DNA of 63,555 nucleotides, filler included, from Halorussus marinus (GCF_004765795.1; 4 parts of 4 records of this genome joined end to end with filler, not necessarily neighbours in it); one strand, 5' to 3'; counted from the first letter of the whole stretch, positions 47,489 through 63,555 are shown. Notes: a model not told the origin generated them from the sequence alone. Numbers and translations are program-made.

Positions 47489-50400
47489 GTGACGTATCAG
47501 GTCGTCGGCTGTTCGGCCTGTGGCTCGTTCTGGATCGTCGAGGCCCTCCGAAACCAGACGACCGCCCAGTGCCCCGTTTGTTTCCAACAGCATCAGACCG
47601 ACCTCCTCAACGTCCGGTTCGAACACGAGGAGTTCGAGGTTGCCGCCGAGACCAGGTCGAAGATTCTTGCCGAGCAGGCCGGCCACCTCGACCAGTACGA
47701 GACCGCCGACGACTATGGTGTCCTCGGCGAGCGCGCTGACGACCCGGTCCTTTCAGACCGCGAGTACTGTGAAGCGCTCGGCCTCCCCCCCGAAGAGGCC
47801 GGTCTCGACACCGCAATTACTCGGGGGAAGACCGCCGAGAACCGCACGCAGACCGAGACTCTGACGACAGACCCCGGTAAGCCCCCCGATATCGAAGTTG
47901 ACATTGCGGACCGCCCGCAACTCGATGTCTCGAAAGCAGGCCACGCCGACCGTTCGCGTGGCCTCTCGCGTGTCCTTCCCGGAAGCCAACTCTCCGCGGC
48001 GGGCCACATCTACCAGCGGGTCACTCCGCGCGTTACCGAACTCATCGACGAGACATCCGGCGACATGGACCACGACCTTCGCGATGATCTCCGCCCACAG
48101 GCCGCCCGACTTGTCCATGAGCTCGCCGAGCAACGCGCGCCCGAACTCCTTGACCCGAGCGAACCCGAGTACCACGACGTCGACTGGTTTGTCGCCGAAG
48201 TCCTTACCGAGACGGTCTGTGACCTCCCCCGGACGGACGACGCGATCGACGATTACGCGGTCGTCGCGGAAGCGCAGGGCTACCTCCACGCGCTCGCCCG
48301 CTATGCTATCCTCTGGGCGGACGACGACTACCGGGACGGCCGTGGGTTCCGCGGCGAGGAGTTCGTCGAGCGCGTCGAACGGACGCTCGAGCAGGCCGCG
48401 ACCTCTCAGGGGTCGTTCCAAGCACCTGTCGTCGAAACGCTCAAGCACACGCTTGTCGCGCTGTTCACGGAGCGTGACGTACCGGAGGTTCTCACGTTCT
48501 ACCTCGACGGCGAGGCGTGGACCGAAGCCGACAAGCAGACCGTCGAGACGGCGCTCCAGCTGTTCGCCGTCCTCGGCGAAGGATTCGACGTGCGGCTCAA
48601 GTACTCGCCGGCTGTCGAGGACGTCATCGACCGTGCGGTCGACCGCGTCCGAGCTCGGGATGCTGACGATCCAGACTGGCTCGAACCGGTGACGAATCTT
48701 AGTGAGACCGAGATGAGGTCCGGGCGTCCGCCCGGTGCTGGGTCCGGTCAGTCCGGGCCGACGGCGTGGGACGCCTACGACGCGCTCGATCACCTCGCAA
48801 ACAGCGCGGACGTCCTCCAGATGATCCCGCATCTGCGCGCGCGAGGAACGCGCGCGGTCACGGACCTCAAGCGCGACGACGCTGTCCGCTGTGCTGACGG
48901 GTCCGTATACGCGAATCTCGACACGCTCGAAGACGCAGGCATCGTCACATCCGTGAAGCGGGCTGGCCGCCGCCACGTCTCGCTCACCGAACTCGGCGAC
49001 GTCGCCCAGCGCATCGTCACCGCCGACGGTCGCCTCCTCCACCCGTCCCAAGCGTGCCTTGGGCCGGGTCTTAGCGGCACCCCCCAGCTTCTCGCAAGTG
49101 AGTGTAACACCCGAACAAGGACGGAAGGGGGGCCGGATGGGCCGGGCCGCTCCCCCGCCGGGAGCGCCCCCGCGACCGCCGACGATGCGCCGTCGACGCC
49201 TGAGGAGTGGCTCGCCGCGACCGGCGATCCCCGCGACGAGAGCTTCGTGCAGTGGCTGGGCAACGCCACCGCAGACCGCCCGCTCCAGCCGTCAGCAATG
49301 CATAACCGCCTGCTGGCGGGCAACCGCGTCGAAGGCATCAATCTCGTCCATGAACCGCATCACAAGCGCTGGAATAAGACCGAGGACGGCGACGGCCGGG
49401 TCACGTACATCAGTGGCGGTGCAGAGTTCGACGACACAGCGCTGGCAGTGGTCCAGTGGGGTGGGCCGGCGGTGACGCTGGCACGTCTCATCGCAACCAT
49501 ATTCGGCAACGCCGCGTTCGGGAAGCTCCTCGAGGAGAGTCGGGTCGGAACCCAGTTGGAGCAACTCCATGGGGACGTCAGTCAGTTCGAGAAGGACCTC
49601 GACGCGATCCTCCGGCGTGGCAACCACCATGGCTGGCTGAGCGACGAAGAGCTCGCCCACTACGAGAACTGGAAAGACCGGATGGGCGATGTCCGGTCGA
49701 TGTTGCTGGCAAGGCTGTCCGAGCTCGCGAGCCTCGACGCCGGGTTGAAACGCGAGTTCCTTGAGGACCTCCACGGGCTGTTCACGACCGCGACCCACGT
49801 CTACGACGCGGCTGGGTTCGACCTCGTAGCCAACCTGCAGGTGCCCGATGTCGCAGAACTCCGTGACGACCAGACGCGGTACCAGCAGTTCCTTGACTTC
49901 ATGCGGTACACCCCGACGAAACAGGCGGTCTACCGCGACGAGCACGGCGTCCACAGCATCCATCGGATGCAACGTGACGACCGGCCCGAGAAGTTGCGGA
50001 ACCGCATCGAGTACGACGTCGACGAGGACGACCCGACGGCGGACCTGACCTGTTCGTGGATCATCTCGGCCGACGGTGCACCCCGAATGCAAGAGGACAT
50101 CCGGGCGGCGATCGGGAACGAACAGGAGCGGGTGCGGGAGCAGATTGTCGAAGGGGAGGAGGCGGCGGCGGTGCTGGAGATCCCAATCAAGAGCGCGAAT
50201 ACGTTCGCGGCCACGAAGCAACTGGTCCGGGAGTGGGCCGACCGGAAAGGCCACCGGCCGGGCGAGACGACACAACCACTTGACCGCCTCACACGGATGC
50301 TCCACGCCGTGCTCGGGACGCCGGAGTTCGGTCCGTCGCCGTTCGACGTGGCGTCGGTGATGATGGCGCTCGGCCGTCGCGACGGCTACGGCGACGAGCT

Positions 50401-51010
50401 GACGGTCGGCGACCTCGCGCACGGCCTCGGCGAACTCCCGGCGAACCGACTCTTGCCGAGCCTGTTTGAGGCGGCCGCCGAGCAACGGAAACCGGCGCTC
50501 CAGCGGATGGTCAAAGCTCTCCTCCAAGCCGAGGGAGCGCTCTCGCGCCAGGACCTGATCGACGTGACGAGCGAGAACAGCTACAGTCGGCTCCATCACT
50601 ATCTCGACGCCGCTGACCTCGTTGAGAAGGTCGACGACGGCCAGTGGACAATCTCGCTCGAACCGTGGTGGGCCTCGACGAACGACCACGTCGAACCGCG
50701 GCAGGACGGCCACGAGACGGAGATTCTGACGACGGGCGGACAGCCGGTCTGGTCGGACGTGGCGTACGGGATTGCATTGGAGTATCTCGATCAGGTGCCG
50801 AGTGAGGAGTGGGTAGATGTGTGGAACTCGCCTGTCGATCTGGGGGAAGTCGTTGATGTAATACCGGAACTCAGGCGGTTCGAGCATCTCCTGCGGACCT
50901 ATTACGACCTAGACGATCCAACAGAAAATGAGCGGACAGCCGTCGCGATGGTCGGACGGCATCCGGCGATGCCCGAAGAGGGCCAGCAGCAGCTTGGGGT
51001 GGTTGGATAA
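47489..51010 (+). CDS. Large plasmid replication protein, RepH-like, with N-terminal Zn-finger domain
   Basis: YQVVGCSAC..WIV..AQCPVC N-terminus; two wHTH-like segments; DGRVTYIS..VVQWGGP resembles haloarchaeal RepH-annotated proteins (from memory); SD ggaggtg. Confidence 0.6.
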   Translation: MTYQVVGCSACGSFWIVEALRNQTTAQCPVCFQQHQTDLLNVRFEHEEFEVAAETRSKILAEQAGHLDQYETADDYGVLGERADDPVLSDREYCEALGLPPEEAGLDTAITRGKTAENRTQTETLTTDPGKPPDIEVDIADRPQLDVSKAGHADRSRGLSRVLPGSQLSAAGHIYQRVTPRVTELIDETSGDMDHDLRDDLRPQAARLVHELAEQRAPELLDPSEPEYHDVDWFVAEVLTETVCDLPRTDDAIDDYAVVAEAQGYLHALARYAILWADDDYRDGRGFRGEEFVERVERTLEQAATSQGSFQAPVVETLKHTLVALFTERDVPEVLTFYLDGEAWTEADKQTVETALQLFAVLGEGFDVRLKYSPAVEDVIDRAVDRVRARDADDPDWLEPVTNLSETEMRSGRPPGAGSGQSGPTAWDAYDALDHLANSADVLQMIPHLRARGTRAVTDLKRDDAVRCADGSVYANLDTLEDAGIVTSVKRAGRRHVSLTELGDVAQRIVTADGRLLHPSQACLGPGLSGTPQLLASECNTRTRTEGGPDGPGRSPAGSAPATADDAPSTPEEWLAATGDPRDESFVQWLGNATADRPLQPSAMHNRLLAGNRVEGINLVHEPHHKRWNKTEDGDGRVTYISGGAEFDDTALAVVQWGGPAVTLARLIATIFGNAAFGKLLEESRVGTQLEQLHGDVSQFEKDLDAILRRGNHHGWLSDEELAHYENWKDRMGDVRSMLLARLSELASLDAGLKREFLEDLHGLFTTATHVYDAAGFDLVANLQVPDVAELRDDQTRYQQFLDFMRYTPTKQAVYRDEHGVHSIHRMQRDDRPEKLRNRIEYDVDEDDPTADLTCSWIISADGAPRMQEDIRAAIGNEQERVREQIVEGEEAAAVLEIPIKSANTFAATKQLVREWADRKGHRPGETTQPLDRLTRMLHAVLGTPEFGPSPFDVASVMMALGRRDGYGDELTVGDLAHGLGELPANRLLPSLFEAAAEQRKPALQRMVKALLQAEGALSRQDLIDVTSENSYSRLHHYLDAADLVEKVDDGQWTISLEPWWASTNDHVEPRQDGHETEILTTGGQPVWSDVAYGIALEYLDQVPSEEWVDVWNSPVDLGEVVDVIPELRRFEHLLRTYYDLDDPTENERTAVAMVGRHPAMPEEGQQQLGVVG

Positions 51011-51185
51011 GAACGCCAGACGGCGGCATGGGTGGTCTCTGTAAGAACGCTGGAACTCCGGGGAAGGTAAGCGGTCGCTTGCGAACGTGTCGAGTACTTC
51101 TGTGAATAGAGATATAGAATGGGGAGTCCCGTCCCAGTTGCCACGCGGCAATAGGTTTAGGTGAGTGGCTGGCGAACCAAGAGAC

Positions 51186-51548
51186 ATGAGTCAAGACCGC
51201 GAACGAAACGACCAAGGGCAGTACGTCGGCACGATCTCGCTCGAGGACGTAGTCGAAGCGATTCGCCAGACGGACAGTCCCGTGGCGACCGCACCCGAGC
51301 TCGGTGAGATCCTCGACTGTAGCTCAGAAACAGTTCGGCAGAAACTGGTCACACTCCACGAGCAGGGCCGGGTGGAACGGCGCACAGTCGGGGCCAACGC
51401 CGTCGTGTGGTGGCTGACCGACACCGAGAACACCGTCGCCGAAATCAACCCGGACGACCCGTTCTGGAGCGCAGACCCGCACGGCGGTGACGAGCCGGTC
51501 GGCGAGGAGGACATCGACGATATCCTCTACGGCGAGGCAGAATCGTAA
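51186..51548 (+). CDS. wHTH putative antitoxin (second copy)
   Basis: Near-identical to 22172-22540. Confidence 0.78.
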   Translation: MSQDRERNDQGQYVGTISLEDVVEAIRQTDSPVATAPELGEILDCSSETVRQKLVTLHEQGRVERRTVGANAVVWWLTDTENTVAEINPDDPFWSADPHGGDEPVGEEDIDDILYGEAES

Positions 51549-51994
51549 TGACGCAGGGCGCAACGCCATTGTTCATCGATACGGGCGCGTTCTTCGCATG
51601 GGCCTACGAGCAGGCCGAACGCCACGACCGAGCCCGCGAGGTTTTCGATGCCCTCGGCGCTGGCGACCTCCCGTACCGGCCGCTCTACACGAGCCGGTCG
51701 GTGCTCTCGGAGCTCGCTACGCTGATGGTTCGCAAGGTCGGCCATGCCGAGGCCGTCGAGACACTCGACACGATCCGTGAGTCGGAGAGCTTCAACGTCC
51801 TCCCGGTAGACAAACCTGCGTTCACTGCTGCGTGCGACGAGTTCGCTCAGTACGATGACCACCAGATTTCGTTTGTCGACCATACGAGTAGTGTGCTGGC
51901 GGGAAGCCGGGACATCGAGCACATGTTCGCGTTCGACAGCGATTTTCGGACGCTCGGGTTTACCCTCGTCCCTGCAGACGTAGCGGTCCCGTGA
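51548..51994 (+). CDS. vapC: PIN-domain VapC-like toxin (intact copy)
   Basis: FIDTGAF, SVLSEL, SFVDHTS, FAFDSDF. Confidence 0.87.
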   Translation: MTQGATPLFIDTGAFFAWAYEQAERHDRAREVFDALGAGDLPYRPLYTSRSVLSELATLMVRKVGHAEAVETLDTIRESESFNVLPVDKPAFTAACDEFAQYDDHQISFVDHTSSVLAGSRDIEHMFAFDSDFRTLGFTLVPADVAVP

Positions 51995-52267
51995 GGAAGA
52001 ACTCTCGCCGACATCCTCGTCTCGGTAGTAGATTCACGATTGGACGACCAACAGTGAAATCGAGTACACTAGGATATCTTCCTAGGAGGGTGTTATAGAA
52101 GACTTCACACACCCACAGAGATTGGTCACCATAGCAGTAGTCGATAATACGATTTCTTTATTCAGCCTTCAGGACGTAACCAATATGGACGTTTTTACTC
52201 GGTGTGGGACGTGATTCCGCCATACAATAATCACAACTGTTTTAATCACTATCGTTAATTCTATTTA

Positions 52268-52537
52268 ATGATGAATATTGTAGCTCTCCTTGGCGTTCTG
52301 TTCCTACTGTTGCTAGGTCTCTTCTCTATCTACGCCGGTTTACGACAACTATTCTACGTTCTCACCGGGAATCAAGAGCAATTGGAGGTAGCAGGCCGAT
52401 TCAAGTTTCTCTTCGGTTTCAAAGACCCGACGTTGACGCAAAAACGTCTCTTTTGGTTAATCGGCGGGTTCTTGTTGATTCTCGGTGGGCTCGCGTTTCT
52501 CGGAATGGTGGTGTTCTCGGTCAGTTCTGGAGTCTGA
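52268..52537 (+). CDS. Small two-TM membrane protein
   Basis: Two hydrophobic stretches; low GC. Confidence 0.55.
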   Translation: MMNIVALLGVLFLLLLGLFSIYAGLRQLFYVLTGNQEQLEVAGRFKFLFGFKDPTLTQKRLFWLIGGFLLILGGLAFLGMVVFSVSSGV

Positions 52538-52615
52538 CCCGAACAACTACTCCTCTATTTCACCACCAATTCTGAATAAAGAAACTGTGCTACTAACTAC
52601 TGATAGCACTGTGCG

Positions 52616-53029
52616 TTAGTAGTCTTTCAGCCAAGTGGGACCGCCGTACGCGTCGACGTAACACCGCTTGTGGACGGGCTCCTCACGCTTGTTCGGCACG
52701 GCCTTCTCCAACGGCACTTGGTCTCCGCAGAGATCGCACTCGGCGCTGTGGCCGTGCATCCGAGCATCCTGCGAGAGGTCTTTCGTCTCGATATACAACT
52801 CTTGGAGCGACTTCGGCGTGAGCCGAACAAAGATCTTCTCGCGGTCCTCCTTGTTCCCGCGTTCGGGCGTATAGGACAAGACCCAGTCCTGGCCGGGTTC
52901 ACCATCGCCGCCTGGGCCAAGTGAGATTGTCTGTGCGAGTTCGTCCGGGACGTAGTGCCACTCGTTGTCTGCGAACCGAGGGTAATGACCCTTCGGACGC
53001 GGATTTTCGGGGTCGATATCTTTACTCAT
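52616..53029 (-). CDS. Hypothetical protein with C-terminal CxxC...HxxC motif
   Basis: CDLC...HKRC; start MSKDID. Confidence 0.6.
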   Translation of the reverse strand: MSKDIDPENPRPKGHYPRFADNEWHYVPDELAQTISLGPGGDGEPGQDWVLSYTPERGNKEDREKIFVRLTPKSLQELYIETKDLSQDARMHGHSAECDLCGDQVPLEKAVPNKREEPVHKRCYVDAYGGPTWLKDY

Positions 53030-53040
53030 GGAAATCTCGT

Positions 53041-53076
53041 ATGTCTGTATCTGTATTTGTATATGGATATGTATAT
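53041..53076. repeat. Degenerate hexamer array
   Basis: atgtct gtatct gtattt gtatat ggatat gtatat. Confidence 0.8.
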
Positions 53077-53078
53077 GG

Positions 53079-53450
53079 CTACAACTGGCGGGCGCGCTCG
53101 CCCTTCGCGTCCTTGAACGCTTCAACTGCTTCCGGGCACGCTTCTTGAAGACCTATCCACACAGCCGAGATGATCAACTCCTGCCGGTTCACATCGTTAC
53201 CGCGACCGCGGACCTCGTGCAGTTGCTCAACGACCGCTTCTAACTCGCTCTCGTCAGCCTCAAGCCCACGGACGAACGCAGCAAGATCCTTATCACGGGC
53301 CGAGAGCGTTTTCATGTTCGACCCGCCGTCTTCGACCGCGTCAAGTGCGTCGATGAACCGGTCTTCGAGACTCGGTTCGTTGTTGGTGTTGCTGGCGCGG
53401 TCGCCGGGCCGGGACTGCTCGCGGAGCTCGTCGATGTCTGGGTCACCCAT
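53079..53450 (-). CDS. ParA partner protein (putative DNA-binding adaptor)
   Basis: Starts 2 nt after the parA stop; KTLSARDKDLAAF...VNRQELI. Confidence 0.6.
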   Translation of the reverse strand: MGDPDIDELREQSRPGDRASNTNNEPSLEDRFIDALDAVEDGGSNMKTLSARDKDLAAFVRGLEADESELEAVVEQLHEVRGRGNDVNRQELIISAVWIGLQEACPEAVEAFKDAKGERARQL

Positions 53451-53452
53451 GG

Positions 53453-54322
53453 TTATTCCCCTCCAGTCAGACGCCTGTAGAACGCTTTAGCGTTGACACG
53501 GTAGGCTTCAATCGCCTCTTCGGCGGTCTTCGATGGCTTGTCAAGCGCGAACACGGTCTTGCCTTGGTTGCAGGCGTTTCGAATGTCCTGACTCACAGGA
53601 ACATACGCAGGTGCGAACGCATCAGGGTATGCGTCCTCGAACTGTTGAAGGTACTCCTCGGCGAGGTTCGTTCGCGTGTCCACCTTGTTCGGAAGGACCA
53701 TCGTCAGCTCGAGCTCGATGTCGAAGTTGGTGGCGATACGGTCCAAATCGTCTCGGAGTCCGTTGGCTTGTTTCTCTTCGAGCGGCCCCATCTCGACGGG
53801 CGCGATGATGTTCCGGGCGGCCCAGAGGCCATTGTAGCTGACGTTGTTCGTGAGACCGGGGAGGTCGAAGAGGATCACGTCGTACCCCATCGGCTCGAGA
53901 TGCTCGGTGGTGAACTCGTTGAGGCGCTGGTAGCGATCCTCTTGGTCGACGCTGGCGAGATCGTCGTCGACGCCGTCGAGGTCTGGATGGGCGGGGATGA
54001 TATCTGGGCCTTCACTGGTCTCCCAGATCATCTGCTCGGCGGCGTCGGGAACAGCGCGCGCAATTTGCTCCCATTGGTCGGTGAAGACGGTGCCGATGTT
54101 CGGCCAGTCTTGGTCGTCGTCATCATCGGCGTCGATAGCGGCCTGCCAGTCGTCGAGTAGACCGAAGTATTCGGCGAGGTCGTTTTGTTTCCCAGCGAGA
54201 TCGACGATGAGGACATTGTGGTCTTGCTCGGCGAGTGCGACGCCGAAGTGTGCTGCGGTGGTGGTTTTGCCGGTGCCGCCCTTGTCGAGGAAGGTAGCGC
54301 CGCGGACTGTTTTTGTAGCCAT
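53453..54322 (-). CDS. parA: ParA/MinD-family ATPase
   Basis: DKGGTGKTT deviant Walker A, IVDLA, YDVILFDLPG, NKVDTRT. Confidence 0.9.
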   Translation of the reverse strand: MATKTVRGATFLDKGGTGKTTTAAHFGVALAEQDHNVLIVDLAGKQNDLAEYFGLLDDWQAAIDADDDDDQDWPNIGTVFTDQWEQIARAVPDAAEQMIWETSEGPDIIPAHPDLDGVDDDLASVDQEDRYQRLNEFTTEHLEPMGYDVILFDLPGLTNNVSYNGLWAARNIIAPVEMGPLEEKQANGLRDDLDRIATNFDIELELTMVLPNKVDTRTNLAEEYLQQFEDAYPDAFAPAYVPVSQDIRNACNQGKTVFALDKPSKTAEEAIEAYRVNAKAFYRRLTGGE

Positions 54323-54356
54323 ATCTGCATCTGTATCCATATACAGATATGTATAT
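54321..54356. repeat. Degenerate hexamer array over the parA start/promoter
   Basis: atatct gcatct gtatcc atatac agatat gtatat. Confidence 0.75.
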
Positions 54357-55096
54357 AAAACTTGGCCAGACGTAATCGCTGAAACTAACTGAGAACGGGG
54401 GTAGCTGTTGCTCAGAGGAATTGAAAAGCGAGGGATGACTCCCTCGAAACCCATCTATCTGTTCGGTGCCGGAGTTTGAAACTCTATCGCCACCCGCCAC
54501 TAAATAAGAGAAGTAGAGGTCGTCTACGGAGTCGTCGCGGTCGTCCTCCGCGAGGCGCTCGACGATGCCGTATGTGGAGTCCTGTTCGAATGCTGACGAC
54601 CGCTAATCCATATACCGGTATAGAGTTTACGAATTATTGTCTCGTCACTCGCCAGACCAAGTGGAAATGGAACTCGCTATCTGGAGCGTCTCACACTCAG
54701 AGAACTGTGGGAGGTTGGCGTGCCCAAATCAGGTCCGCAGAACGGAATGGGCGGTCGACAGCGGAAATCTGGGGTTAGTCGTCGGGATCGTGAAGCGCCT
54801 CGCCGAGCGCCCACCTCCGAGCGCCACTACCGCTCCGACTGCCGGACTCTCAGTCACGCTGTAGGCGAGCGCTCCGCCGGCGACTGCTCCAACGAGGCCG
54901 CCACCACGTTCGTCGATGCTTGAGAGTAGACTGTGTCCTTTGTCAAGCACTGTCGGCTCATATTTTCCGGGATTGAACTACGGAATTTCCGAGTTATCAT
55001 AGAAGTCGGAAGCGAACCCCTGCTTTCGGGGTGAATACCAGGGTGATCACCACTGTATCCTCGGGTATTTTGTGCAAGGTTATTTTAGAAGTGCAC

Positions 55097-55238
55097 ATGA
55101 GGCTCGAGGCGACCGCGAAGGAAGACGAATACAAGGTCTGGATGACAGACGGAGAACTCGAGGAACTTCGCCGTGCCGCTGCGAGTCACCGAGACGACCT
55201 TGTCATCCAGCTGGGTGGCTATGTCGGCCTCCGCGCGT
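55097..55238 (+). CDS. Tyrosine recombinase/integrase, N-terminal part (cut by gap)
   Basis: KVWMTDGELEEL..RDDLVIQLGGYVGLRA (box I, GLR). Confidence 0.75.
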
Positions 55239-55346
55239 NNNNNNNNNNNNNNNNNNNNNNNNNNNNNNNNNNNNNNNNNNNNTTAATTAATTAANNNNNN
55301 NNNNNNNNNNNNNNNNNNNNNNNNNNNNNNNNNNNNNNGTGACGAG

Positions 55347-55910
55347 GTGGTACTGTCATGCGTAATCACCAGCGAGAAGCGCCGGCACTACCGGCAGACG
55401 CCGGTGTCGCTGGACGCGGCCGCGACGGTCCGCCGGCGGATGGCGAAGAAGTTCATCCGGCCGGCCTGTCGCGCGGGCTATCGCACGCTCCGGAAGGACG
55501 CGGGCGAGTACGTCCAGGAGGACAATCGCGTCGACGTCGAGGACGTCTCGATGTTCGCGATGCGGCCGTCGCTCCAGACGCTGAAAGACCGACAGACGGT
55601 CGCGTTGCGGAAGCTCCTCGACGGATTTGAATCCGAGGACGCACTCGACACCTGGCTCCATCACCTCGATGACGTCACGCTCGGGGAGCTCGACCGGATC
55701 GACGCGGATCTCGACTGGCGGCTGGAGATGGAGCGGACTGCTCGGGACGTGCTGCTCGGCGACCGTAGTGATCACGCCCGCCAGCGCGAGCAACTGGCGG
55801 CGTTCTACCTGCTTCCGGCGTTTTCGCTGACACCTGCGCTCCAGTTAGAGCGCGCGCAGGAGCTCCGCGAGGACCCGGACAAACAACGACTGGAGGAGAC
55901 ACAGATATGA
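55347..55910 (+). CDS. Hypothetical protein coupled to the ATPase (5' end uncertain)
   Basis: ATGA overlap with the next gene. The SD-preceded ATG at 55358 is out of frame, suggesting an indel near the contig edge. Confidence 0.6.
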   Translation: MVLSCVITSEKRRHYRQTPVSLDAAATVRRRMAKKFIRPACRAGYRTLRKDAGEYVQEDNRVDVEDVSMFAMRPSLQTLKDRQTVALRKLLDGFESEDALDTWLHHLDDVTLGELDRIDADLDWRLEMERTARDVLLGDRSDHARQREQLAAFYLLPAFSLTPALQLERAQELREDPDKQRLEETQI

Positions 55911-57055
55911 CTGCTCCCAACCCTGATAACTTACCTGACCCACACACGCAGACACGCGAGTACCGAGACGATGACCGATTGCATTCCGACGCGGACTACC
56001 TCCGCCGGAGGTTCGGGATGCGGAAGTTCGACCTCGACGCGTGGGACTACGACGATCTCGGTCCGGCGCTGTTCGACCACACATGGGACGGCGGGACAGC
56101 CCGCGTCTCCGGCGGCCCGGGGTGTTTCACGGTCGGGAAAGAAGGCTCGGGAAAGTCGACGCTGTTGCTGCGGATCGCCAGCGTCGAGATGGCACTGAAC
56201 GAGGCGCGGGTGGTCTGGTCGGCGGTGACCGGCAGCCGGTCGGAGTGGCTTCCGTTTGCGCCGGTCGCGCGGGTGTGCGTCCCGAAGGGGTACGAGCCGA
56301 CCGCTCGCCTCGTGCCGAAACAGCGATCGCGTGGCTCGCGTGGCGTCGAGGTCGATCTGGAGGACATCGTCCGAGAGGTGGTCTACTACAAAGACGTGAT
56401 GGACCTGAACCTGCGGGTTCTCCGAGACGGCCAGTTCAACGTCGTGTACCCTGATCCGAAGATGCGGGGGTGTCAGTGGGTCTACGAGGAGAGCGACCGC
56501 GTAGTCGCCGACTCATCGGACGAGGTCGAGTTCACGGCCGAGGACCCGGTGAACCACTGGTGGTTCGGCTGGGGGCTCTCGCTGGTTGAGCGCGGGCCGT
56601 GGGCGTGGACGAGCTGGATTCAGGACGAGGTCCAGAGTCTGGCGCCCGAGGGCGCGGCGAACGACAAGTACCTGACGCGGCTGAAAATCAAGATGCTCGG
56701 CGAGTCGATGGAGGACTTCCGGAAGAACGGGATCGCGCGGTACTTCGCGGGCCACAAGGACAAACACCTCCATTCGCTGTGGCGTGACCGCATCTCGTTC
56801 CGGATTCACATGAACGGGACAGCGAACCCGCGCCAGTCACGATCGTCGTCGATTCCGGTCGGAATGGAGTCGGTTCCGATGGAGGAGGACCTGATGTCCG
56901 ACGAGGACATCGGGACGGCCCTGCTCTACACCGAGAGTTCGTTCGAAAAGGTCGGGTGGCCGAACATCCCGAAGCCGATCAAGGGCGATTTGAAGGTGTA
57001 CCTCGATCCGGACGGCCGGGAGGGGGCGACCTCGACGGGAGGGGTGACGGCATGA
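55907..57055 (+). CDS. P-loop ATPase resembling the pleolipovirus conserved NTPase
   Basis: Walker A GKEGSGKST, Walker B WIQDE; RSEWLP and VVYPDP blocks recalled from haloarchaeal pleolipo-proviral ATPases. Confidence 0.65.
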   Translation: MTAPNPDNLPDPHTQTREYRDDDRLHSDADYLRRRFGMRKFDLDAWDYDDLGPALFDHTWDGGTARVSGGPGCFTVGKEGSGKSTLLLRIASVEMALNEARVVWSAVTGSRSEWLPFAPVARVCVPKGYEPTARLVPKQRSRGSRGVEVDLEDIVREVVYYKDVMDLNLRVLRDGQFNVVYPDPKMRGCQWVYEESDRVVADSSDEVEFTAEDPVNHWWFGWGLSLVERGPWAWTSWIQDEVQSLAPEGAANDKYLTRLKIKMLGESMEDFRKNGIARYFAGHKDKHLHSLWRDRISFRIHMNGTANPRQSRSSSIPVGMESVPMEEDLMSDEDIGTALLYTESSFEKVGWPNIPKPIKGDLKVYLDPDGREGATSTGGVTA

Positions 57056-57618
57056 TTGCCACCCGACCGACGTCGACGATCGGCGTGGCGACGTCGAGCG
57101 CGAGCTCGCGCTCAGATGAAAATCCGGGGGGTCGGATGCGGCGAGGAGGCGGTCCCCGGCGGAGTTCGGCCTCGATCGGGAGCAATTACGCACGCGCGCG
57201 TTTCGGATATGAACGGAATATCCCCCCCGGGGGTGCGGGCGCATTATGCGCGTCGCGAGCAGGTGCGCGGTTGCTCGCTCGGTGGCGTGGTTCGCGCGCT
57301 CGGTTCAAGGCGCGGGCGGGTGCTCGCGATGGACCGCGGCCGCGGGCGACCTCGCGCGAGCGCTCGTCTTCGCGTGGGTTTTTGAACGCGCTGGCGGGCG
57401 AGCGGTGGCGAGCGCGCGAGCGAAGGATTTCGCGGAGACGCGTCCGCGGCCGCGTCGGTGCGGACGTGACCGGAGGCGGGCAGGCGCGTCGGTGTGCGAC
57501 GGCGCGCGCGGTGCTGTGGGCGTGGTTGCCCGCGAGCGCGGTCGGCCTCGCACGGGCGGAGGATACCGCGTGCGGGGCGCTCGCTCAGGCGCGAACGGAG
57601 GTGGGCGCGGATGCGTAA
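57052..57618 (+). other. Arg/Ala/Gly-rich 188-codon ORF over palindrome-rich, CG-rich DNA
   Basis: ATGA-coupled to the ATPase and overlaps the next start; 18-bp perfect palindrome at 57096-57113. Confidence 0.4.
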
Positions 57619-60600
57619 ATCGCGAGCGCTCGCGCTTGTCGCGCTCGTCGTGATGGGTGCGCTCGTCCCCGTGTGGTCGCCCGTGGTGGTGAGCGCGGCC
57701 GAGGAGACGGGCACGTTCGCGGGCGAGGTTTCGATCGAGATGGACGCGGCGACCGACGGCTCGACGAGTCGCTACGAGCTGGCGGACGCCAGCAAGGCCG
57801 AGAACTTCTCGGTTGAATTGACCGGTCGTGAATCGACAGAACAGGAGTCGGTGTCGGGAACGGCACTCTCAGATGGCGAGATGTTGCCGGTTACCGCGGC
57901 TGGAACGAACGCCCCGACTGGGCCAGCAAACGGCCAGCCTGAAGTGACATTTATGGGGGTCGAGGAGACTCGCCAGACGTTCTGGGCCGGATCGGCCAGC
58001 GATGGCTCGACTGATTCCATCAGCGTTGGCGGGAATAAACTGCCCGTGAACTCGACCGTAACATTCACTGGGAGATCGAACACGTCGGATGCGTCATGGA
58101 CTGCGACGAGTCAATCTGACGGTGCGACGGAATCAATCTCGGTGGACGGGAATGTCGTTCCGAAGAACCAGCAGATCACATTGACAGGGCGAGAGACGGC
58201 GATGTGGGTAAATTCGAGTGGTTCGAATATTACTCCGTCATCAACGCACTCGATTATAACGGGTAATTTGCCATCGGTGGGCCCGGCAACCGGAGACCCG
58301 CAGCTCACAGTCACGGGTCATGCAACGACCCATCAACGCGCTGGTAGTCCGGAACATGGATGGCGTAATAAACCAATTCTTGGAAGTTATAGTAGTAAGC
58401 CAATTCACGGAGAACTCACGTTCAAAGACTTAGAGGGCAAGGTGTCATCAGTGTCGTTGAATGCGACGGTGGATTATGGTGATCCGAGTCAGGCGACGGT
58501 GGATATCTACATGGTCAACGAGGGACATGATCAGACGTATGGCGAGGGGACGGTGGTCAAAAGCGGGTGGACTCCGCCGTCGTCGGGTGGCGAGATAACG
58601 ATTGACCTCGACTCGACTTTTGTCGCTGACGGAGGGCGCACTACTGTCGAGTTTGTCACGACAGGTGGAGTTGATGACACCTGGAAATCGCTTAGGATCA
58701 GCTCAATGTCGGAAGCCGATGGGCGAGACAGCCTGTCGTATAAACGGGGTGGTGATACGTATACTAGCACCCTGGACCCTGATATTGAGGCGACTGTGTC
58801 GCCGACGAATGTGGCGGTCTCTGATGGTCACGGTAATTCGACGTCGTTCGGTGATCTATCTGATGGCGAATCCGTGACAAAATCGATGCCATTGGCTGCT
58901 GATGCGACCGACCTCCAGTTCTCGGGAGGAGGTGGTGCGCTCGACTACCAGTTAGTCAAACAGGACCGTTATGCGCCAGCAAACCCGACGGTCGATATCG
59001 ACGGTGATGGCTCACCAGATGCCTCGTATTCCGGCATCCTCAGTCCGGGTGAGTCAGTATCTCGGGATTTATCGTCGTTGCAAGCAGGGACACAGTCGGT
59101 GATGACCTCTGTTGATGAGGGATCAGTCGACTGGAAGATTGAGGCCGACGAGGTAACTGCGACCGAGAACCCGAAGGTCGATGTCGGGGCGGATGGGTCA
59201 ATCGATGGAACGTACGAGGGTGTTCTTCAGAGTGGCGAGACCGTGACAGTCTCACTATTAAACCTCGACAACGGGACAAATGAACTGGCATTTGCGACGA
59301 CAACCATGGGCTTCGACTGGGAGATCAACGCTGATGAGCGCAGCGTCACCGAAAACCCGCAATTGGATTTCGACGGCGACAGCACCCCCGAGGCCTCGTA
59401 CTCGGGGGTGCTTGAGCCGGGCGAAACGGTGACCCGTGGCGTCGACCTCTCGCTCGGGTCGCATGAGACAGTTGTCTCAACGCGATCGTGGTCGAGGGTC
59501 TCAGTCGCGGTCAACTATACCGAAATTTCTGAGTCGGTGAATCCAAGCGTCACTGTCAACGGCTATGAGGCCGCATTTGACGGAACCCTCGCGAAAAATG
59601 AGACCACGGAGCTGAACGTCTCGACTGCGTGGCTCGCGAACGGGACGAATACTGTCGAGGTCGGAGTCGGCGAATCGCTGTCGGCGGAGGCGCCAGCCGC
59701 GCGCGTTGGGGTCGACTACTACCATACGGCGGCGACGAGCCACTCGACAAGCTACAACAGTACGGCGTGGACCGAGGAGCGCACGATCAACAAGACGTTC
59801 GTCGACGACCAGCAGGACGCGACGCTCCAGTTGCCGTTCCACGATTCGGTAGTCAACATCAAGACATTGGAGATCGCTCGGAACGGGTCCGAGTACACCC
59901 GGATGGATTCTGCGAACTACGAGTACGATGCGGAGTCGGCGGTGGTGACGGTCAAGCTCGGCGACATGGAAGCGAACGAGTCAGTGTCGGTCCACGCGAA
60001 GGGCTGGCGGGTCAAGGTCAACGATGGCGACATCACGATCCGCGAGCCGACACTGCCGGGCGATCGGCTCGACACCGCTATCGAAGTGACCGAGAAAGGC
60101 GAGAACTTCTGGCTGGGTATCCAGAACCAGCGGATCGTCCACACATACAACGAGTCGTGGAGCCAGCCCGAGGAGTATTCGCAGGTGACCGCGGATGGCG
60201 CCCAACGAGTCCATCTCCCGAACGCTGGCGAGGGTGCGACCGCTCGGGTCGAGTACACGCCCCTGGAGGTCACTCCCGAGCGCGGGGATGCGGAGGTCCA
60301 CATCGAGGACCTCGATGCCCAACAGTTCCATCTCGACCCGGGGCGGACGAACGGGGGCCCGGTGACAATCCGGTGGCTGAATGCGGTCGAAGACAAGAGC
60401 TACGCGCTCTGGTCGGTGACCCACTCGGATACACGGACGGTTGAGAAGGCCGGCGCTGACGGCGTCGTGTTCGTCGACGATGACAGTCCGGAGACGCTCC
60501 AGATCATCGCGAGCGAGAACGCTGGCGACTCCGGCATCGGTGGGCCATTCGGGCTGGGCCAGTCGCTCCAGGGCGGACTGGTGCTCGCGCTGGTTGCGGG

Positions 60601-61162
60601 CTCGGTCGGGCTCGTTTACTGGCTCCAGCGGCGGTACGGCTCGCGTGGCTACGGCCGGCGGGACGTGCTGGTCTTGTTGACGACTGCGGGAGCGGTGACG
60701 CTGCTCGGGATGGAGATCGTGGCGCCCGGGTCGGCGTCGGGCCTGATCTCCTCGGGCACCGTCCCGATCCTGGGTGGCGCAGTGCTCGCGATCCTCGGGC
60801 TCTACTACGGCATCGACTACCTGCCGGGCGGCCGGCGGCTCAAGATCGGCTACCTCGGCGTGGGCGTGGCGTTCGTCGGTATCCTCGCGCTGGAGGTGCT
60901 GGCGCCCGGGTCGATCTCCGGGACGCTCGGGCCGGTGATCGCGGAGGCGCTCGATCCCGCGATCCGGCTCGGCGGGCTCGCCGGAGTCGGGCTCGCCACC
61001 TACGCGCTGTACCGCTGGCTGTTCGGCAACTCCAGCAGTGGCTCGGGCAGTTCGTCGTCCTCGTCTGGCGGGAGTTCCAGCGAGGACGATTCGGCGATGA
61101 CGCAGGTGATCGTCCAGGACAACGATGATAGCGTCACGACGTCGTCGGGAGGTGACGACTGA
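57611..61162 (+). CDS. 1183-aa secreted, C-terminally membrane-anchored repeat protein (adhesin/spike-like)
   Basis: Signal peptide MRKSRALALVALVV..; beta-rich repeats; DxDGDG loops; many N-x-S/T sequons; about five C-terminal TM segments; Ser-rich tail. Confidence 0.8.
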   Translation: MRKSRALALVALVVMGALVPVWSPVVVSAAEETGTFAGEVSIEMDAATDGSTSRYELADASKAENFSVELTGRESTEQESVSGTALSDGEMLPVTAAGTNAPTGPANGQPEVTFMGVEETRQTFWAGSASDGSTDSISVGGNKLPVNSTVTFTGRSNTSDASWTATSQSDGATESISVDGNVVPKNQQITLTGRETAMWVNSSGSNITPSSTHSIITGNLPSVGPATGDPQLTVTGHATTHQRAGSPEHGWRNKPILGSYSSKPIHGELTFKDLEGKVSSVSLNATVDYGDPSQATVDIYMVNEGHDQTYGEGTVVKSGWTPPSSGGEITIDLDSTFVADGGRTTVEFVTTGGVDDTWKSLRISSMSEADGRDSLSYKRGGDTYTSTLDPDIEATVSPTNVAVSDGHGNSTSFGDLSDGESVTKSMPLAADATDLQFSGGGGALDYQLVKQDRYAPANPTVDIDGDGSPDASYSGILSPGESVSRDLSSLQAGTQSVMTSVDEGSVDWKIEADEVTATENPKVDVGADGSIDGTYEGVLQSGETVTVSLLNLDNGTNELAFATTTMGFDWEINADERSVTENPQLDFDGDSTPEASYSGVLEPGETVTRGVDLSLGSHETVVSTRSWSRVSVAVNYTEISESVNPSVTVNGYEAAFDGTLAKNETTELNVSTAWLANGTNTVEVGVGESLSAEAPAARVGVDYYHTAATSHSTSYNSTAWTEERTINKTFVDDQQDATLQLPFHDSVVNIKTLEIARNGSEYTRMDSANYEYDAESAVVTVKLGDMEANESVSVHAKGWRVKVNDGDITIREPTLPGDRLDTAIEVTEKGENFWLGIQNQRIVHTYNESWSQPEEYSQVTADGAQRVHLPNAGEGATARVEYTPLEVTPERGDAEVHIEDLDAQQFHLDPGRTNGGPVTIRWLNAVEDKSYALWSVTHSDTRTVEKAGADGVVFVDDDSPETLQIIASENAGDSGIGGPFGLGQSLQGGLVLALVAGSVGLVYWLQRRYGSRGYGRRDVLVLLTTAGAVTLLGMEIVAPGSASGLISSGTVPILGGAVLAILGLYYGIDYLPGGRRLKIGYLGVGVAFVGILALEVLAPGSISGTLGPVIAEALDPAIRLGGLAGVGLATYALYRWLFGNSSSGSGSSSSSSGGSSSEDDSAMTQVIVQDNDDSVTTSSGGDD

Positions 61163-61494
61163 TGCCCGCGGACGTGTTCGTGGTGCTGCGCGAGGCGGTC
61201 GGTCAGGTCCTGGCGACGCTCGGACTGAAAGGCATGATCGGGGCGAGCGCGGTCGTCTCGACACTGACGCTGTTCTGGTGGGGCTACCGGCTCTCGTCGG
61301 TGGTGGCGTTCCTGCGGACAGCAAGCACGGTCGCCGTTCGGTACGGAGCGGTGTCGGTGGCCGTGCTGGCGGTCGCACTCGCCGGGGCGCTCCACGCGGG
61401 GGTCATCCCGGGCGTGAATATCGCGCCAATCTACGACCTGCTGGACGTCCTGGTCGAGACGGTCTCGCCGAGCGGTGGAGGTGGGATACTGTGA
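61162..61494 (+). CDS. Small integral membrane protein
   Basis: TGATG coupling; SD ggaggtga; mostly hydrophobic 110 aa. Confidence 0.7.
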   Translation: MPADVFVVLREAVGQVLATLGLKGMIGASAVVSTLTLFWWGYRLSSVVAFLRTASTVAVRYGAVSVAVLAVALAGALHAGVIPGVNIAPIYDLLDVLVETVSPSGGGGIL

Positions 61495-62180
61495 GCGACG
61501 CGACCCTCGACACGTTTACCGCCGACGACGACGGCGACGACGTCGAGGATGACTCGGGGAGCCGGAGTCGCGTCGACGAGCTGCGCACCGAGTACGAGCC
61601 CCGCATCCGGTCGGGGCTTGCGAGCCTTCGCGACGAGATCGAGACGCGGGCCGGGCAGGCACGCGAGACGTGGCGCGCTGAGTACGAGCCCCGCATCCGG
61701 GCGGCCCTTAGCGACGCCGAGGACTGGCTCGACGAGCGGTACGCCGACGCGAGCGAACGCCGGACGCGGTTCTATCAGGGACTGGTCGCGCTGGGGCTGG
61801 TGGTGGCGTGGACGGTCGGGAAACCGGCCATCTACGGCTGGCTCGATACTGTTGCGGTCATCGTGACGGTCGGGCCGTTCCTCTGGTTCGCGACCGAGTC
61901 AGAGATGTGGTCGCGACTGGCCGAGCTTACGGCGCTGATCGCGGTGAGCCTGCTGGCCGCGATCCTCGCAAAGGCGACTATCTTTCCGTGGCGCTCAGTC
62001 GAGGCGTTCGTCACCGAGACCGTCGTCGGGCGAGCGATCGGTGTGACGTTCGGAACGGCCGTCAACGCGGCGCTCGCGCTGTTCGGGGCGGCGGCGCTGT
62101 TCTGGCTGTTGAAGGCCTACGAGTACCGCCGGACGAGTCCCGAGGACCGCGTGCTGACCGACGGGAGTGGTGAGCAGTGA
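61491..62180 (+). CDS. Membrane protein with acidic/helical N-terminus and about four TM segments
   Basis: GTGA-coupled; duplicated EYEPRIR (21-bp direct repeat at 61590 and 61680). Confidence 0.7.
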   Translation: MSDATLDTFTADDDGDDVEDDSGSRSRVDELRTEYEPRIRSGLASLRDEIETRAGQARETWRAEYEPRIRAALSDAEDWLDERYADASERRTRFYQGLVALGLVVAWTVGKPAIYGWLDTVAVIVTVGPFLWFATESEMWSRLAELTALIAVSLLAAILAKATIFPWRSVEAFVTETVVGRAIGVTFGTAVNAALALFGAAALFWLLKAYEYRRTSPEDRVLTDGSGEQ

Positions 62181-63555
62181 GCCAGACGGTCCAGCCCGAG
62201 GACGTCGACGAATCGCTCCCGAAGCCAGTGCTGTCGGTCGGAGACGAGCGCGCGGAGCATCTCGGGGAGACCATCACGGTCCGCGGGCAGGTCGTGAAGC
62301 GGTCGAGCGTCCGGCCGAAGGTGACCACGGCCGCGTTTGAATGCCGTCGGTGCGGGCACCTGGAGCGCATCGAGCAGGGGTACGGCGACATCGACCAGCC
62401 GGCAGTCTGCCCGGGCTGTGAACTCAAGCGGGTGCGGTGGCGATTCCGAAAGGACTGCTCGGAGTGGACGGACTTCCAGAAGCTCCGGCTCCAGCAGTTG
62501 CCCGAGGAGATGACCAACGGTGAGACGGAGTCGATGGACGTCTTCTTGACTGACGAGCTCGCACGCCGCGGGCTCGAAAGCGGGCGGTGCGTCTCGCTGA
62601 TCGCGGAGTACCTCCCGCTCCAGGATGGCGGGTCGACGGTGTTCGACAAGGCGTTCGACGCCGAGGATGTCCTCGTCGAGGACACCGATCCGGGGGAGTT
62701 CGACGTCGAGCCGTACCGGGAGGTCATCGACGCGGTCGCGAGCCGCGACGACCCGGTGGACGTGCTGGTTGAGTCGGTCGCACCGAGCCATCTCGGCGAT
62801 CGTCACATCAAGGAGGCGCTGATCTGCCAGCTGGTTAGGGCGAATGCCCCGACGGGCGCCGACGGGAAGGACTACCGTGGGCAGATTCACATGTTCCTGC
62901 TGGGTGACCCGGGCGCGGGCAAGACCGACTTCGGGGAGGCGCTGGTGCGGCTCGCGCCGCGTTCGCAGAAGTCGAGCGGGAACGAGGGGACGTCGGCGGC
63001 CGGATTGACGGCGGCGATCACTCGCGACGATTTCTCGAACGCGGAGTTCACGGTGACGGCCGGCGCGATCCCAAAATGTTCGGGCGGGGCGCTGTTCCTG
63101 GACGAGCTCGACAGCGCTGGCGATCAGGAGCAGAACGCGCTGCTGGAGGCGATGGAGTCGGGCGTAATCAACATCGAGAAGGCCGGGCAGAAGGCGACGC
63201 TGGAGGCCGAGACGGCGATCCTCGCGGCGGGGAACCCCGAGAATGGTCACTTCGATCCGGAGCGGTCGCCCGCGGAGCAGACGAACGTGCTGTCACCGCT
63301 GCTCGACCGGTTCGACCTGATCTTCTGTCCCGAGGAGAAGACCGATCCGGACGCGGTCGAGGCGATCGCGGACCACATCACCGCTGGACGTGACGCTGCG
63401 CAACGCCGGGAGATCGACAAGAACGTCCCCGAGTCGGCGGACGCGGTTGAGCCGGAGCTGTCGACCGAGGAACTCCGGGCGTACTTGGCGGCGGCGCGGG
63501 AGAAACGGCCGGTGTTCGGGAGCGACGAGGTACGCCAGACGCTCCGGGACTGGTA
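62177..63555 (+). CDS. mcm: MCM helicase (runs off window; absent from the ORF track)
   Basis: Own translation: VRGQVVKRSSVRPK, ECRRCG..CPGC Zn finger, DFQKLRLQQLPE, RGQIHMFLLGDPGAGKT, SAAGLTAA, FLDELD, LLEAME..IEKAG, AAGNP, LLDRFDL. Confidence 0.93.
   Translation, partial: MSQTVQPEDVDESLPKPVLSVGDERAEHLGETITVRGQVVKRSSVRPKVTTAAFECRRCGHLERIEQGYGDIDQPAVCPGCELKRVRWRFRKDCSEWTDFQKLRLQQLPEEMTNGETESMDVFLTDELARRGLESGRCVSLIAEYLPLQDGGSTVFDKAFDAEDVLVEDTDPGEFDVEPYREVIDAVASRDDPVDVLVESVAPSHLGDRHIKEALICQLVRANAPTGADGKDYRGQIHMFLLGDPGAGKTDFGEALVRLAPRSQKSSGNEGTSAAGLTAAITRDDFSNAEFTVTAGAIPKCSGGALFLDELDSAGDQEQNALLEAMESGVINIEKAGQKATLEAETAILAAGNPENGHFDPERSPAEQTNVLSPLLDRFDLIFCPEEKTDPDAVEAIADHITAGRDAAQRREIDKNVPESADAVEPELSTEELRAYLAAAREKRPVFGSDEVRQTLRDW

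Follow-up and report, generated by a model that had tools for sequence, protein, structure and literature searches.

Contig C21 of the haloarchaeon Halorussus marinus (GCF_004765795.1) is probably the central part of a tRNA-integrated, virus-like mobile element, and the family to which it belongs is widespread and apparently undescribed. We consider it slightly better than an even bet (about 0.55) that the family comprises temperate, non-lytic, PAV1-like viruses of haloarchaea that are extruded through the membrane and are distant from PAV1; it is known here from sequence alone. The original prediction was right that the element is mobile and virus-like and that it combines a membrane module with MCM and a large, variable adhesin; the affiliation with pleolipoviruses that it proposed is not supported.

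Structure of the integrated element

The window is the whole stretch of 63,555 nucleotides that was analysed, in which four unrelated draft contigs of H. marinus are strung together via N-linkers. C21 (8217 bp) coincides exactly with the region for which the prediction was made; the DNA before position 55339 is a different contig, C19, and no overlap between C19 and C21 was found in the end-overlap graph of the genome contigs. Seven co-oriented, coupled ORFs had been predicted, and stop and start codons indeed overlap at 6/6 junctions (Table 1). The P-loop ATPase, the 1183-aa anchored surface protein, the two membrane proteins and MCM are all present on C21. The first ORF (55347-55910), predicted as hypothetical, is present but is only a fragment of s8, and the complete protein of 286 aa is encoded on a sister contig.

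Table 1. Features of contig C21 and of the linker before it, in window coordinates
Feature	Position	Strand	Basis
Artificial N-linker joining C19 to C21, two unrelated contigs	55239..55338	.	N runs and blastn against genome contigs
s8, soluble core protein (last 189 of 286 aa)	55339..55910	+	Full ORF on sister contig
FtsK-HerA-superfamily ATPase, 382 aa, PAV1 ORF375 family	55907..57055	+	tblastn, PHROG, HH, fold comparison
Arg-rich ORF, probably non-coding intergenic spacer	57052..57618	+	0/54 loci; no codon-position bias
Conserved ~45-bp cis-acting DNA motif, candidate signal	57180..57244	+	In place in 29/46 non-seed loci
Big surface protein, 1183 aa, putative adhesin / receptor-binding protein	57611..61162	+	Hydropathy, repeats, sister-copy comparison
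Membrane protein, 110 aa, accessory	61162..61494	+	Homologue in 1/54 loci
Membrane protein, 229 aa, acidic N-terminal repeat, accessory	61491..62180	+	0/54 loci; identical in sister copy
MCM helicase, cut at contig end, exchangeable replication gene	62177..63555	+	Pfam match; runs on into C4

The genome contains two copies of the element, of ~28.5 and ~35.4 kb as inferred from contig overlaps. Both encode an integrase, Cdc6, MCM and an initiator of the Rep-Arvir type, and both have an att repeat of 13 bp. The element is placed at a tRNA 3' end, with the tyrosine integrase and the att repeat at the opposite end: the 3' ends of tRNA-Pro and tRNA-Ala recur as 13-bp copies at distances of 81 and 79 bp from the respective integrases, and the tRNA-Pro 13-mer occurs only twice in the whole genome. 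These repeats were identified after the tRNAs had been located; a blind repeat search had been uninformative. Upstream of the C21 genes are a lectin-fold surface protein (s2), three paralogous hydrophobic hairpin proteins (s3, s4, s5) and a large membrane protein (s7). A 94-aa ORF ('s5b') is also found upstream.

The integrase/Cdc6/Rep-Arvir backbone is the same as in SNJ2 and LSV-48N. LSV-48N and Tebi-SV1 (proposed Almyrocitroviridae) are temperate, lemon-shaped haloarchaeal viruses of ~25 kb. LSV-48N has the integrase (41%), Cdc6 (47%) and Rep-Arvir in common with the element, but neither the structural-module profiles nor the ATPase found a counterpart in its six-frame translation at E<=0.05; the one match, to its Cdc6, covered Walker A only.

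Distribution of the family and its replication genes

An ATPase-alignment scan of genome contigs recovered 54 related loci, while a single-protein pattern scan of the same contigs gave no match. In 47/54 loci this upstream core shows synteny with the ATPase, and 53 of 301 genomes, about 1 in 6 of the Halobacteriales genomes sampled, have a strong ATPase match. Every one of these 47 loci encodes s2, the big surface protein or, in 25 cases, both; across the 54 loci, homologues of s8 and of the big protein occur in 52 and 34, respectively. Element genomes measure 28-40 kb across the family. A free circular relative, pNG300, has s3, s4, s5, s7, s8, MCM, the ATPase and the big gene. The gene combination had been proposed as a new type, but it is not unique, since it belongs to this widespread family. 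No relative was found in IMG/VR by a pattern scan with the ATPase alignment, a method of low sensitivity. A description of the family was likewise not found in the literature searched, the coverage of which ended short of the PMC12934983 supplement on the PAV1 family core, a source that may bear on membership.

MCM on C21 matches Pfam MCM (E 7e-58) and MCM_OB (E 3e-20), reaches ~615 aa once extended onto contig C4, and is 35% identical to the chromosomal MCM. It had been predicted as the replication gene. MCM is present, but it is found in only 8/54 loci, at three different positions, and is therefore not family-defining; it is an exchangeable extra, and the typical initiator is of the Rep-Arvir type (40/54 loci). 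The profile of the 614-aa Rep matches PAV1 ORF528 (DUF7845; E 2e-36), and in the PAV1 family MCM and DUF7845 are reported to swap at the replication locus (PMC12934983).

The ATPase and its relatives

Several comparisons indicate that the nearest viral relative of the ATPase in sequence is PAV1 ORF375. PAV1 matched by tblastn (E 3e-11), phrog_22963 matched the ATPase (E 2e-13), and HH comparison with ORF375 gave 99.55% (E 2e-23, 269 columns). The ATPase family profile detected ORF375 at E 5e-31, and its scores were 105 bits for PAV1, 17 bits for His2 and nil for HRPV-1 and HRPV-3. A PDB sequence search gave Walker-A-level or chance matches only. The AF2 model (pLDDT 93) resembles HerA (Z 16.2, rmsd 3.8, 230 aligned), STIV2 B204 (Z 14.1, rmsd 3.5, 194 aligned) and VirB4 (Z 13.6, rmsd 4.2, 226 aligned). 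The ATPase was also checked for grouping with the conjugation proteins VirB4 and VirD4, which would have counted against the original prediction, and it groups specifically with neither. We regard it as a putative genome packaging or extrusion motor. s8, which almost always adjoins the ATPase gene and has no family in Pfam, PHROG or NCBIfam, may be its partner or a DNA-recognition adaptor.

The HerA and VirB4 fold scores are about equal to that of viral B204, which would also suit an integrative, contact-dependent DNA-transfer element like pT26-2 or Ced. In such an element, s3-s5 would be pilin or channel subunits, the ATPase a translocase, Rep-Arvir also a relaxase and the conserved DNA motif a transfer origin. 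Conjugation-like systems such as pT26-2 are likewise marked by an FtsK-HerA ATPase in company with small hydrophobic proteins (PMC6972569). Compared by description, the pT26-2 family is similar in logic, with a membrane-protein core, a HerA/VirB4/B204-like ATPase, MCM and tRNA integration, but there it is reported only from Thermococcales and Methanococcales. The cargo on the element, a PAS kinase and a large surface glycoprotein, also fits DNA transfer. On the other hand, the element has a single ATPase, of 382 aa, which lacks the N-terminal domain of VirB4, and it has no coupling protein; a crude Walker-A screen of the 54 loci gave only 2 further ORFs >450 aa. Furthermore, among named viruses a clear homologue of the ATPase sequence occurs in PAV1 only, and the integration backbone is common to proven viruses. 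We thus regard DNA transfer by contact as rather unlikely. ORF375-like genes are also borne by non-viral pTN2-like plasmids (PMC3543421).

Weak Zot matches, in 3/78 members of the ATPase alignment, raise a filamentous, inovirus-like virus, in which Rep-Arvir would produce ssDNA by rolling circle, the ATPase would extrude it and s3-s5, each with a long amphipathic helix and a TM helix, would coat it. The rolling-circle-type Rep of most loci agrees with this. However, hydropathy revealed no TM anchor in the ATPase, the fold score for Zot (Z 9.9, rmsd 4.2, 170 aligned) is below those for HerA and B204, and the 28-40 kb genomes and the Cdc6/MCM genes fit dsDNA, making a filamentous virus improbable.

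Two candidates were set aside. Halfvol2 of Haloferax volcanii is also tRNA-integrated, with many membrane proteins and a PH1/B204-like ATPase candidate, but judged by size it differs: it is 12.3 kb long and its ATPase HVO_0377 has 206 aa, whereas full-length family members mostly have 345-530 aa. Fusexin elements are >50 kb and carry VirB4/VirD4.

Surface and membrane proteins

The big protein starts with a hydrophobic signal (3-31), contains 18 sequons for N-glycosylation and has tandem acidic beta-type repeats at residues ~450-620 and hydrophobic segments at 985-1104. Between the sister copies, a hypervariable segment of its gene (~58.1-59.1 kb) has 35-61% nt identity, while most parts outside it have 90-100%. 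This single, sharply divergent segment makes the big protein resemble receptor-binding proteins, and we consider it a putative adhesin or receptor-binding protein. Neither it nor the N-terminal part of s7 had a tblastn match in the phage collection, and the C-terminal part of the big protein had no usable match in the ESM Atlas. The s2 model contains a CBM jelly-roll at residues 95-261 (Z 13.2, rmsd 2.8, 144 aligned). In sequence searches, s2 had no match in the PDB, and its sole match in the ESM Atlas was one archaeal cluster. The small, hydrophobic, hairpin-like proteins s3, s4 and s5 are mutually paralogous (HH 81-99%), and s5 gave generic helical matches only in the PDB sequence search.

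PAV1 (proposed 'Osirisviridae') has homologues, over their full length, of the ATPase (ORF375) and the Rep (ORF528/DUF7845), and it is also like the element in its two anchored surface proteins, at least one with a lectin-type fold, and several small membrane proteins. Of what marks the PAV1 type, the element has an ORF375-type ATPase and a DUF7845/MCM-type replication locus; the PAV1 family core is reported to retain two membrane-anchored lectin proteins (PMC12934983). Unlike PAV1, the element has three paralogous hairpin proteins, 28-40 kb, an SNJ2-type integrase and haloarchaeal hosts, and there is no detectable homology to ORF121, 676, 678, 180b, 137 or other PAV1 structural genes. Specifically, s2 and the big protein gave no profile match to ORF676/ORF678, and s3/s4/s5 scored HH <1% against PAV1 ORF121 or His1 ORF21, resembling ORF121 in size and hydropathy only.

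The combination of this kind of ATPase with hydrophobic proteins also marks plasmid vesicles (PMC10818511). A pR1SE-like element would leave the cell in irregular vesicles formed by its own membrane proteins and carrying the element and flanking host DNA, with no regular capsid. By the same description, pR1SE and other apHPVs are haloarchaeal, integrate, and encode an ATPase of the VirB4/HerA/B204 kind together with a large, beta-rich surface protein and often MCM. However, no subtilisin-like serine protease (ORF7) or WD40 (ORF6) annotation was found among the scanned module proteins, and, against pR1SE as described, the membrane module is one compact operon of ~12 kb in an element with precise tRNA/att ends. 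Vesicle transfer is thus unlikely, though a shade less so than filamentous extrusion.

Comparison with pleolipoviruses

Pleolipoviridae (HRPV-1, HRPV-3, His2, SNJ2) share tRNA integration and the integrase/Cdc6/Rep-Arvir backbone with the element. The predicted pleolipovirus-like ATPase is borne out as a remote NTPase similarity (HH 79%, E 1.6e-5, 110 columns around Walker B), but PAV1 ORF375 is much closer; relative to HRPV-1 ORF8 the similarity is of superfamily level and not that of an orthologue, and the HRPV-3 NTPase (ORF5), used as a query, had no match in the H. marinus genome. The s7 ectodomain weakly matches ORF6 (HH 84%, E 8e-6, 32 core columns), which together with the remote NTPase similarity and the SNJ2-like backbone could suggest a highly divergent true pleolipovirus. 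Against this, no VP3/VP4-like genes were recognised upstream by profile comparison, an outcome that the original prediction itself had named as contrary to it. VP4 matched only over a 59-column membrane tail (HH 45%), ORF7 reached HH 9%, and ten element profiles scored HH <1% against a 6-sequence profile of VP3, a protein that can diverge beyond sequence detection. The ORF4-6-7-8 order within 4.5 kb of Pleolipoviridae (PMC10599561) is absent; the module is different and much longer, spanning ~6-8 kb from s2 to the ATPase with several genes in between. Lastly, s2 has a predicted CBM jelly-roll domain. A true pleolipovirus is therefore very improbable, the least likely of the readings considered. 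The s2 fold searches carry no weight in this: no pleolipovirus spike or fusexin was among the 50 matches listed per search, but the CBM domain filled these lists.

The Arg-rich ORF and the conserved DNA motif

The Arg-rich ORF, predicted as a gene, is probably not protein-coding, as it has no homologue in the 54 related loci. Compared with the sister copy, it has 12/8/17 substitutions by codon position, with no third-position bias, whereas the ATPase gene has 22/22/87; the synonymous to non-synonymous codon ratios are 13:21 and 65:40, respectively. Acidic residues make up 6% of its product versus 14-19% in soluble and surface neighbours. Its start codon overlaps the ATPase stop codon, so it might be a filler ORF serving translational coupling only; from its sequence, the region is probably an intergenic spacer covering the conserved motif.

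This motif, immediately 3' of the ATPase stop, is made up of an alternating CG run, a 15-20 nt spacer and a C6-G run. nhmmer found no off-site match in 1.8 Mb, and in the H. marinus genome matches are confined to the two element copies. The motif regex alone matched 12/55 regions, compared with 0.6% of Markov resamples and 1/270 upstream bins. The motif is a candidate packaging or origin signal.

Model and implications

If the family is viral and PAV1-like, the integrase would excise a circle, whose replication would start from Rep-Arvir and be assisted by MCM or Cdc6. The ATPase, steered by s8 and the downstream motif, would pump the genome across the membrane at a site formed by s7, and s3-s5 would coat the DNA during non-lytic extrusion. 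The product would be a lipid-containing, spindle-like or pleomorphic particle, on which s2 and the big protein may both bind host glycans. A further proposal, which we hold tentatively and at somewhat less than even odds, is that these elements are temperate viruses of haloarchaea whose lineage ranks as a new family and includes the long-sequenced plasmid pNG300 as a free circular member. The viruses would have their own three-paralogue hairpin capsid and an extrusion motor of the FtsK-HerA type, served by a conserved packaging signal in cis. Satellites of the lineage would keep the ATPase only, with or without s8 and often with the motif. Through a shared ancestral extrusion module, the lineage would connect spindle viruses of the PAV1 kind with pleolipoviruses.

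The motif fixed beside the ATPase gene offers a candidate signal, for packaging or for an origin, that can be tested directly in hosts amenable to genetics, and could help to show how archaeal viruses of spindle-like or pleomorphic shape choose their genomes and extrude them. If the elements are conjugative or vesicle-borne instead, they would represent a minimal, undescribed archaeal DNA-transfer machine. If they are viral, they would be among the commonest nameless resident elements of haloarchaea, Haloarcula marismortui pNG300 would be reclassified as an episomal virus, and the PAV1 lineage would be extended from vent hyperthermophiles to halophiles.

Gene content and two integrated copies

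The window consists of contigs C17, C18, C19 and C21 with N-linkers between them, and C21 is exactly the DNA that the original prediction singled out as an element. Its seven ORFs, described there as co-oriented and coupled, all lie on the + strand, and stop and start codons overlap at 6/6 junctions. The ATPase, the 1183-aa surface protein (the big protein below), two membrane proteins and MCM were all judged real; the first ORF and MCM are present but truncated at the ends of C21, with full lengths of 286 aa and ~615 aa. The Arg-rich ORF is unlikely to be a real gene, because homologues were found in 0/54 related loci, acidic residues make up 6%, and it has no third-position bias relative to the sister copy.

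This sister copy, on C22, shares 90–92% identity with C21 across two long blocks. Exact end overlaps link the contigs in the order C12 or C23, C29 plus C31, C22 or C21, and C1 or C4, and the two copies are bordered by tRNA-Ala(GGC) on C12 and tRNA-Pro(GGG) on C4. For each tRNA, a 13-bp piece of the 3' end is repeated, 79 bp after the C1 integrase and 81 bp after the C6 integrase; the genome contains the Pro 13-mer twice and the Ala 13-mer four times. Therefore, from the overlaps, the flanking tRNAs and the 13-bp pieces recurring near integrases, the genome carries two integrated elements of ~28.5 and ~35.4 kb. We infer the pairing of the element ends, because the assembly collapses the middle shared by both copies. 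C21 is most likely part of the tRNA-Pro copy, as judged from contig sequence, because its end runs into C4 at 100% identity versus 96% into C1. The tRNA-Pro copy has apparent cargo (see table), whose presumed path passes the short repeat contig C37. Two or three copies per genome are also seen at L035/L036 and L017/L018/L040.

Both copies encode Cdc6, an integrase, MCM and a 613–614-aa protein matching phrog_15150. The profile of this protein matches LSV-48N CDS26, HRPV-3 ORF9 and PAV1 ORF528 (E 4e-59 to 2e-36), which fall in the Rep-Arvir/DUF7845 rolling-circle initiators according to the available part of PMC13107129.

Features of the element and of other DNA in the window (window positions unless a contig or related locus is named)
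Feature	Position	Description
Plasmid-type replicon genes (C19)	47495-54454	~1170-aa DUF5817 protein (PHROG replication-protein match, E 7e-28) and ParA
ORF pair (C19)	51165-51994	small HTH-like ORF overlapping 148-aa PIN-like ORF; presumably VapBC-type toxin-antitoxin
Integrase-like ORF (C19)	55098-55238	presumed start, truncated at C19 end; common to C16 and C30, unrelated to C21
s1	upstream of C21	small membrane protein
s2	upstream of C21	492 aa, secreted, C-terminal anchor
s3, s4, s5	upstream of C21	three small hydrophobic proteins
Further small membrane ORFs	upstream of C21, listed between s3-s5 and s7
s7	upstream of C21	large membrane protein
ATPase	55907-57055
Arg-rich ORF	57052-57618	probably not a gene
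Motif	57180-57244	~45 bp, beneath Arg-rich ORF
Big protein	57611-61162	putative adhesin
Divergent segment of big gene	~58.1-59.1 kb	C21 vs C22, 35-61% identity (200-nt bins)
Apparent cargo, tRNA-Pro copy	G000 C6:283890-288062, L011:1874-3292	1390-aa cell-surface-glycoprotein-like ORF and PAS histidine kinase
C5 cytosine methyltransferase, tRNA-Ala copy	L008:6571-8097	within Rep operon

Conservation of the module

A 78-sequence ATPase alignment, used as the scan query, recovered 54 related loci, nearly all labelled haloarchaeal. Near-duplicates are among them, and none extends beyond 10 kb on either side. With iterative profiles, s8, the soluble protein directly before the ATPase, was detected in 52 of them, s7 in 50, s3 and s5 in 48 each, s4 in 46, s2 and Rep-Arvir in 40 each, the big protein in 34 and MCM in 8. 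In 47/54 loci s3, s5, s7, s8 and the ATPase occur together, and all 47 of these core loci have s2 or the big protein (both in 25). Among 301 genomes of the order, the ATPase profile matched 65, 53 strongly (E <= 2e-46, including Halorussus marinus) and 12 at the Walker A level only. MCM, proposed as the element's replication mode, lies at three differing positions, and Rep-Arvir accompanies it in 7/8 loci. For these reasons, by gene content MCM is an add-on, not the replicon type of the family. One locus, L037, in a record titled Rhizobium, is nearly identical to the Halobaculum loci L035 and L036 and is probably contamination in that assembly.

In Haloarcula marismortui, the circular plasmid pNG300 has s3, s4, s5, s7, s8, MCM, the ATPase and the big gene, and lacks s2 and Rep-Arvir. 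It also encodes a DUF5817 protein and ParA. Plasmid pHBOR05 has two s8 copies and the ATPase, and pNG100 has essentially the ATPase alone. The ATPase is likewise kept, with or without s8 and often with the motif, where the membrane module is missing (L001 on pHBOR05, L004 on pNG100, L013, L014, L016 and L065); such reduced elements are possible satellites or remnants.

The motif profile was built from the window and eight regex-selected loci. The motif lies 31–174 nt past the ATPase stop in 29/46 other loci (>=8 bits), and across the 1.8 Mb searched just seven further hits came up, all of them this site read on the opposite strand. Within the H. marinus genome it occurs on C21 and C22 only, and it is retained at L013, L014 and L065, where the membrane module is lost. 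This motif is a candidate packaging, transfer or replication signal.

The ATPase and candidate structural proteins

PAV1 ORF375 was the sole tblastn match of the ATPase among 50,697 phage records, and profile comparison of the two gave 99.55% across 269 columns. ORF375 homologues are present on pTN2-like plasmids and in a Methanococcus provirus, according to the accessible portion of PMC3543421. The pleolipo-type NTPase assignment was borne out as a remote likeness (79%, E 1.6e-5, 110 columns from Walker B onward, against a 38-sequence profile) but not as a direct match, since the HRPV-3 NTPase as query found nothing anywhere in the H. marinus genome. The AF2 model of the ATPase (pLDDT 93) has an FtsK-HerA-type fold, with HerA at Z 16.2, STIV2 B204 at Z 14.1 and VirB4 at Z 13.6; the PH1 packaging ATPase is the top viral model. 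Because of these scores, the modelled fold supports DNA translocation and leaves virus and conjugation unseparated. A contact-dependent transfer element, to which a VirB4-like fold would also be suited, is an unlikely reading.

The s2 model is confident (pLDDT 86), and residues 95–261 form a carbohydrate-binding jelly-roll (CBM11, Z 13.2, rmsd 2.8, 144 aligned; HFTV1 turret, Z 10.5). s3, s4 and s5 are paralogous (HH 99, 81 and 88%); in each, a long apolar helix leads through a Gly-Pro turn to a second hydrophobic helix. Their likeness to spindle-virus capsid proteins is limited to size and hydropathy, and their profiles did not match PAV1 ORF121 or His1 ORF21. The VP3/VP4-like genes considered in the original prediction were not recovered: no element profile matched VP3, and VP4 matched at the membrane tail only. 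The s7 ectodomain weakly matches pleolipovirus ORF6 (84%, 32 core columns). In the big protein, a signal peptide and tandem acidic repeats accompany a conserved C-terminal ectodomain and a number of membrane segments; because of this topology and its variability, we regard it as a putative adhesin.

Proposed life cycle and relatives

We consider the element to be a temperate, non-lytic virus, with a probability of roughly 0.55. The observations cover integration, gene content, folds and conservation, and for particle formation we infer every step. The element would be excised by its own integrase, and replication would start from Rep-Arvir, aided by MCM or Cdc6. The ATPase, s8 and the motif may drive DNA through a membrane site built on s7, and s3–s5 would coat the DNA there. 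Host glycans may be the targets of s2 and the big protein. Among other readings, plasmid vesicles are quite improbable, a filamentous extrusion virus is very doubtful and a divergent pleolipovirus is highly improbable.

PAV1-family viruses exchange MCM and DUF7845 and retain two anchored lectin proteins, as stated in the available part of PMC12934983, and this parallels the anatomy of the element. Under the four-gene criterion in the accessible text of PMC10599561, the element falls outside the pleolipoviruses. LSV-48N has only integrase, Cdc6 and Rep in common with it (PMC12714723, in part), and Tebi-SV1, grouped with LSV-48N in the portion of PMC13612827 available, was compared by its description as a relative of that virus. 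Halfvol2 differs in size (PMC7911831; PMC12091111, both in part). apHPV (PMC10818511), pT26-2 (PMC6972569), fusexin elements (PMC9259645), dark-matter islands (PMC4158269) and Danakil spindle viruses (bioRxiv 2025.02.15.638363) were set against the element by the descriptions in the available parts of these sources. We found no description of the family in the literature searched, mostly without subscription papers, and an earlier account is possible. With some candidates compared by description only, the element apparently represents a widespread, unnamed family, kin to PAV1 through its motor and Rep.
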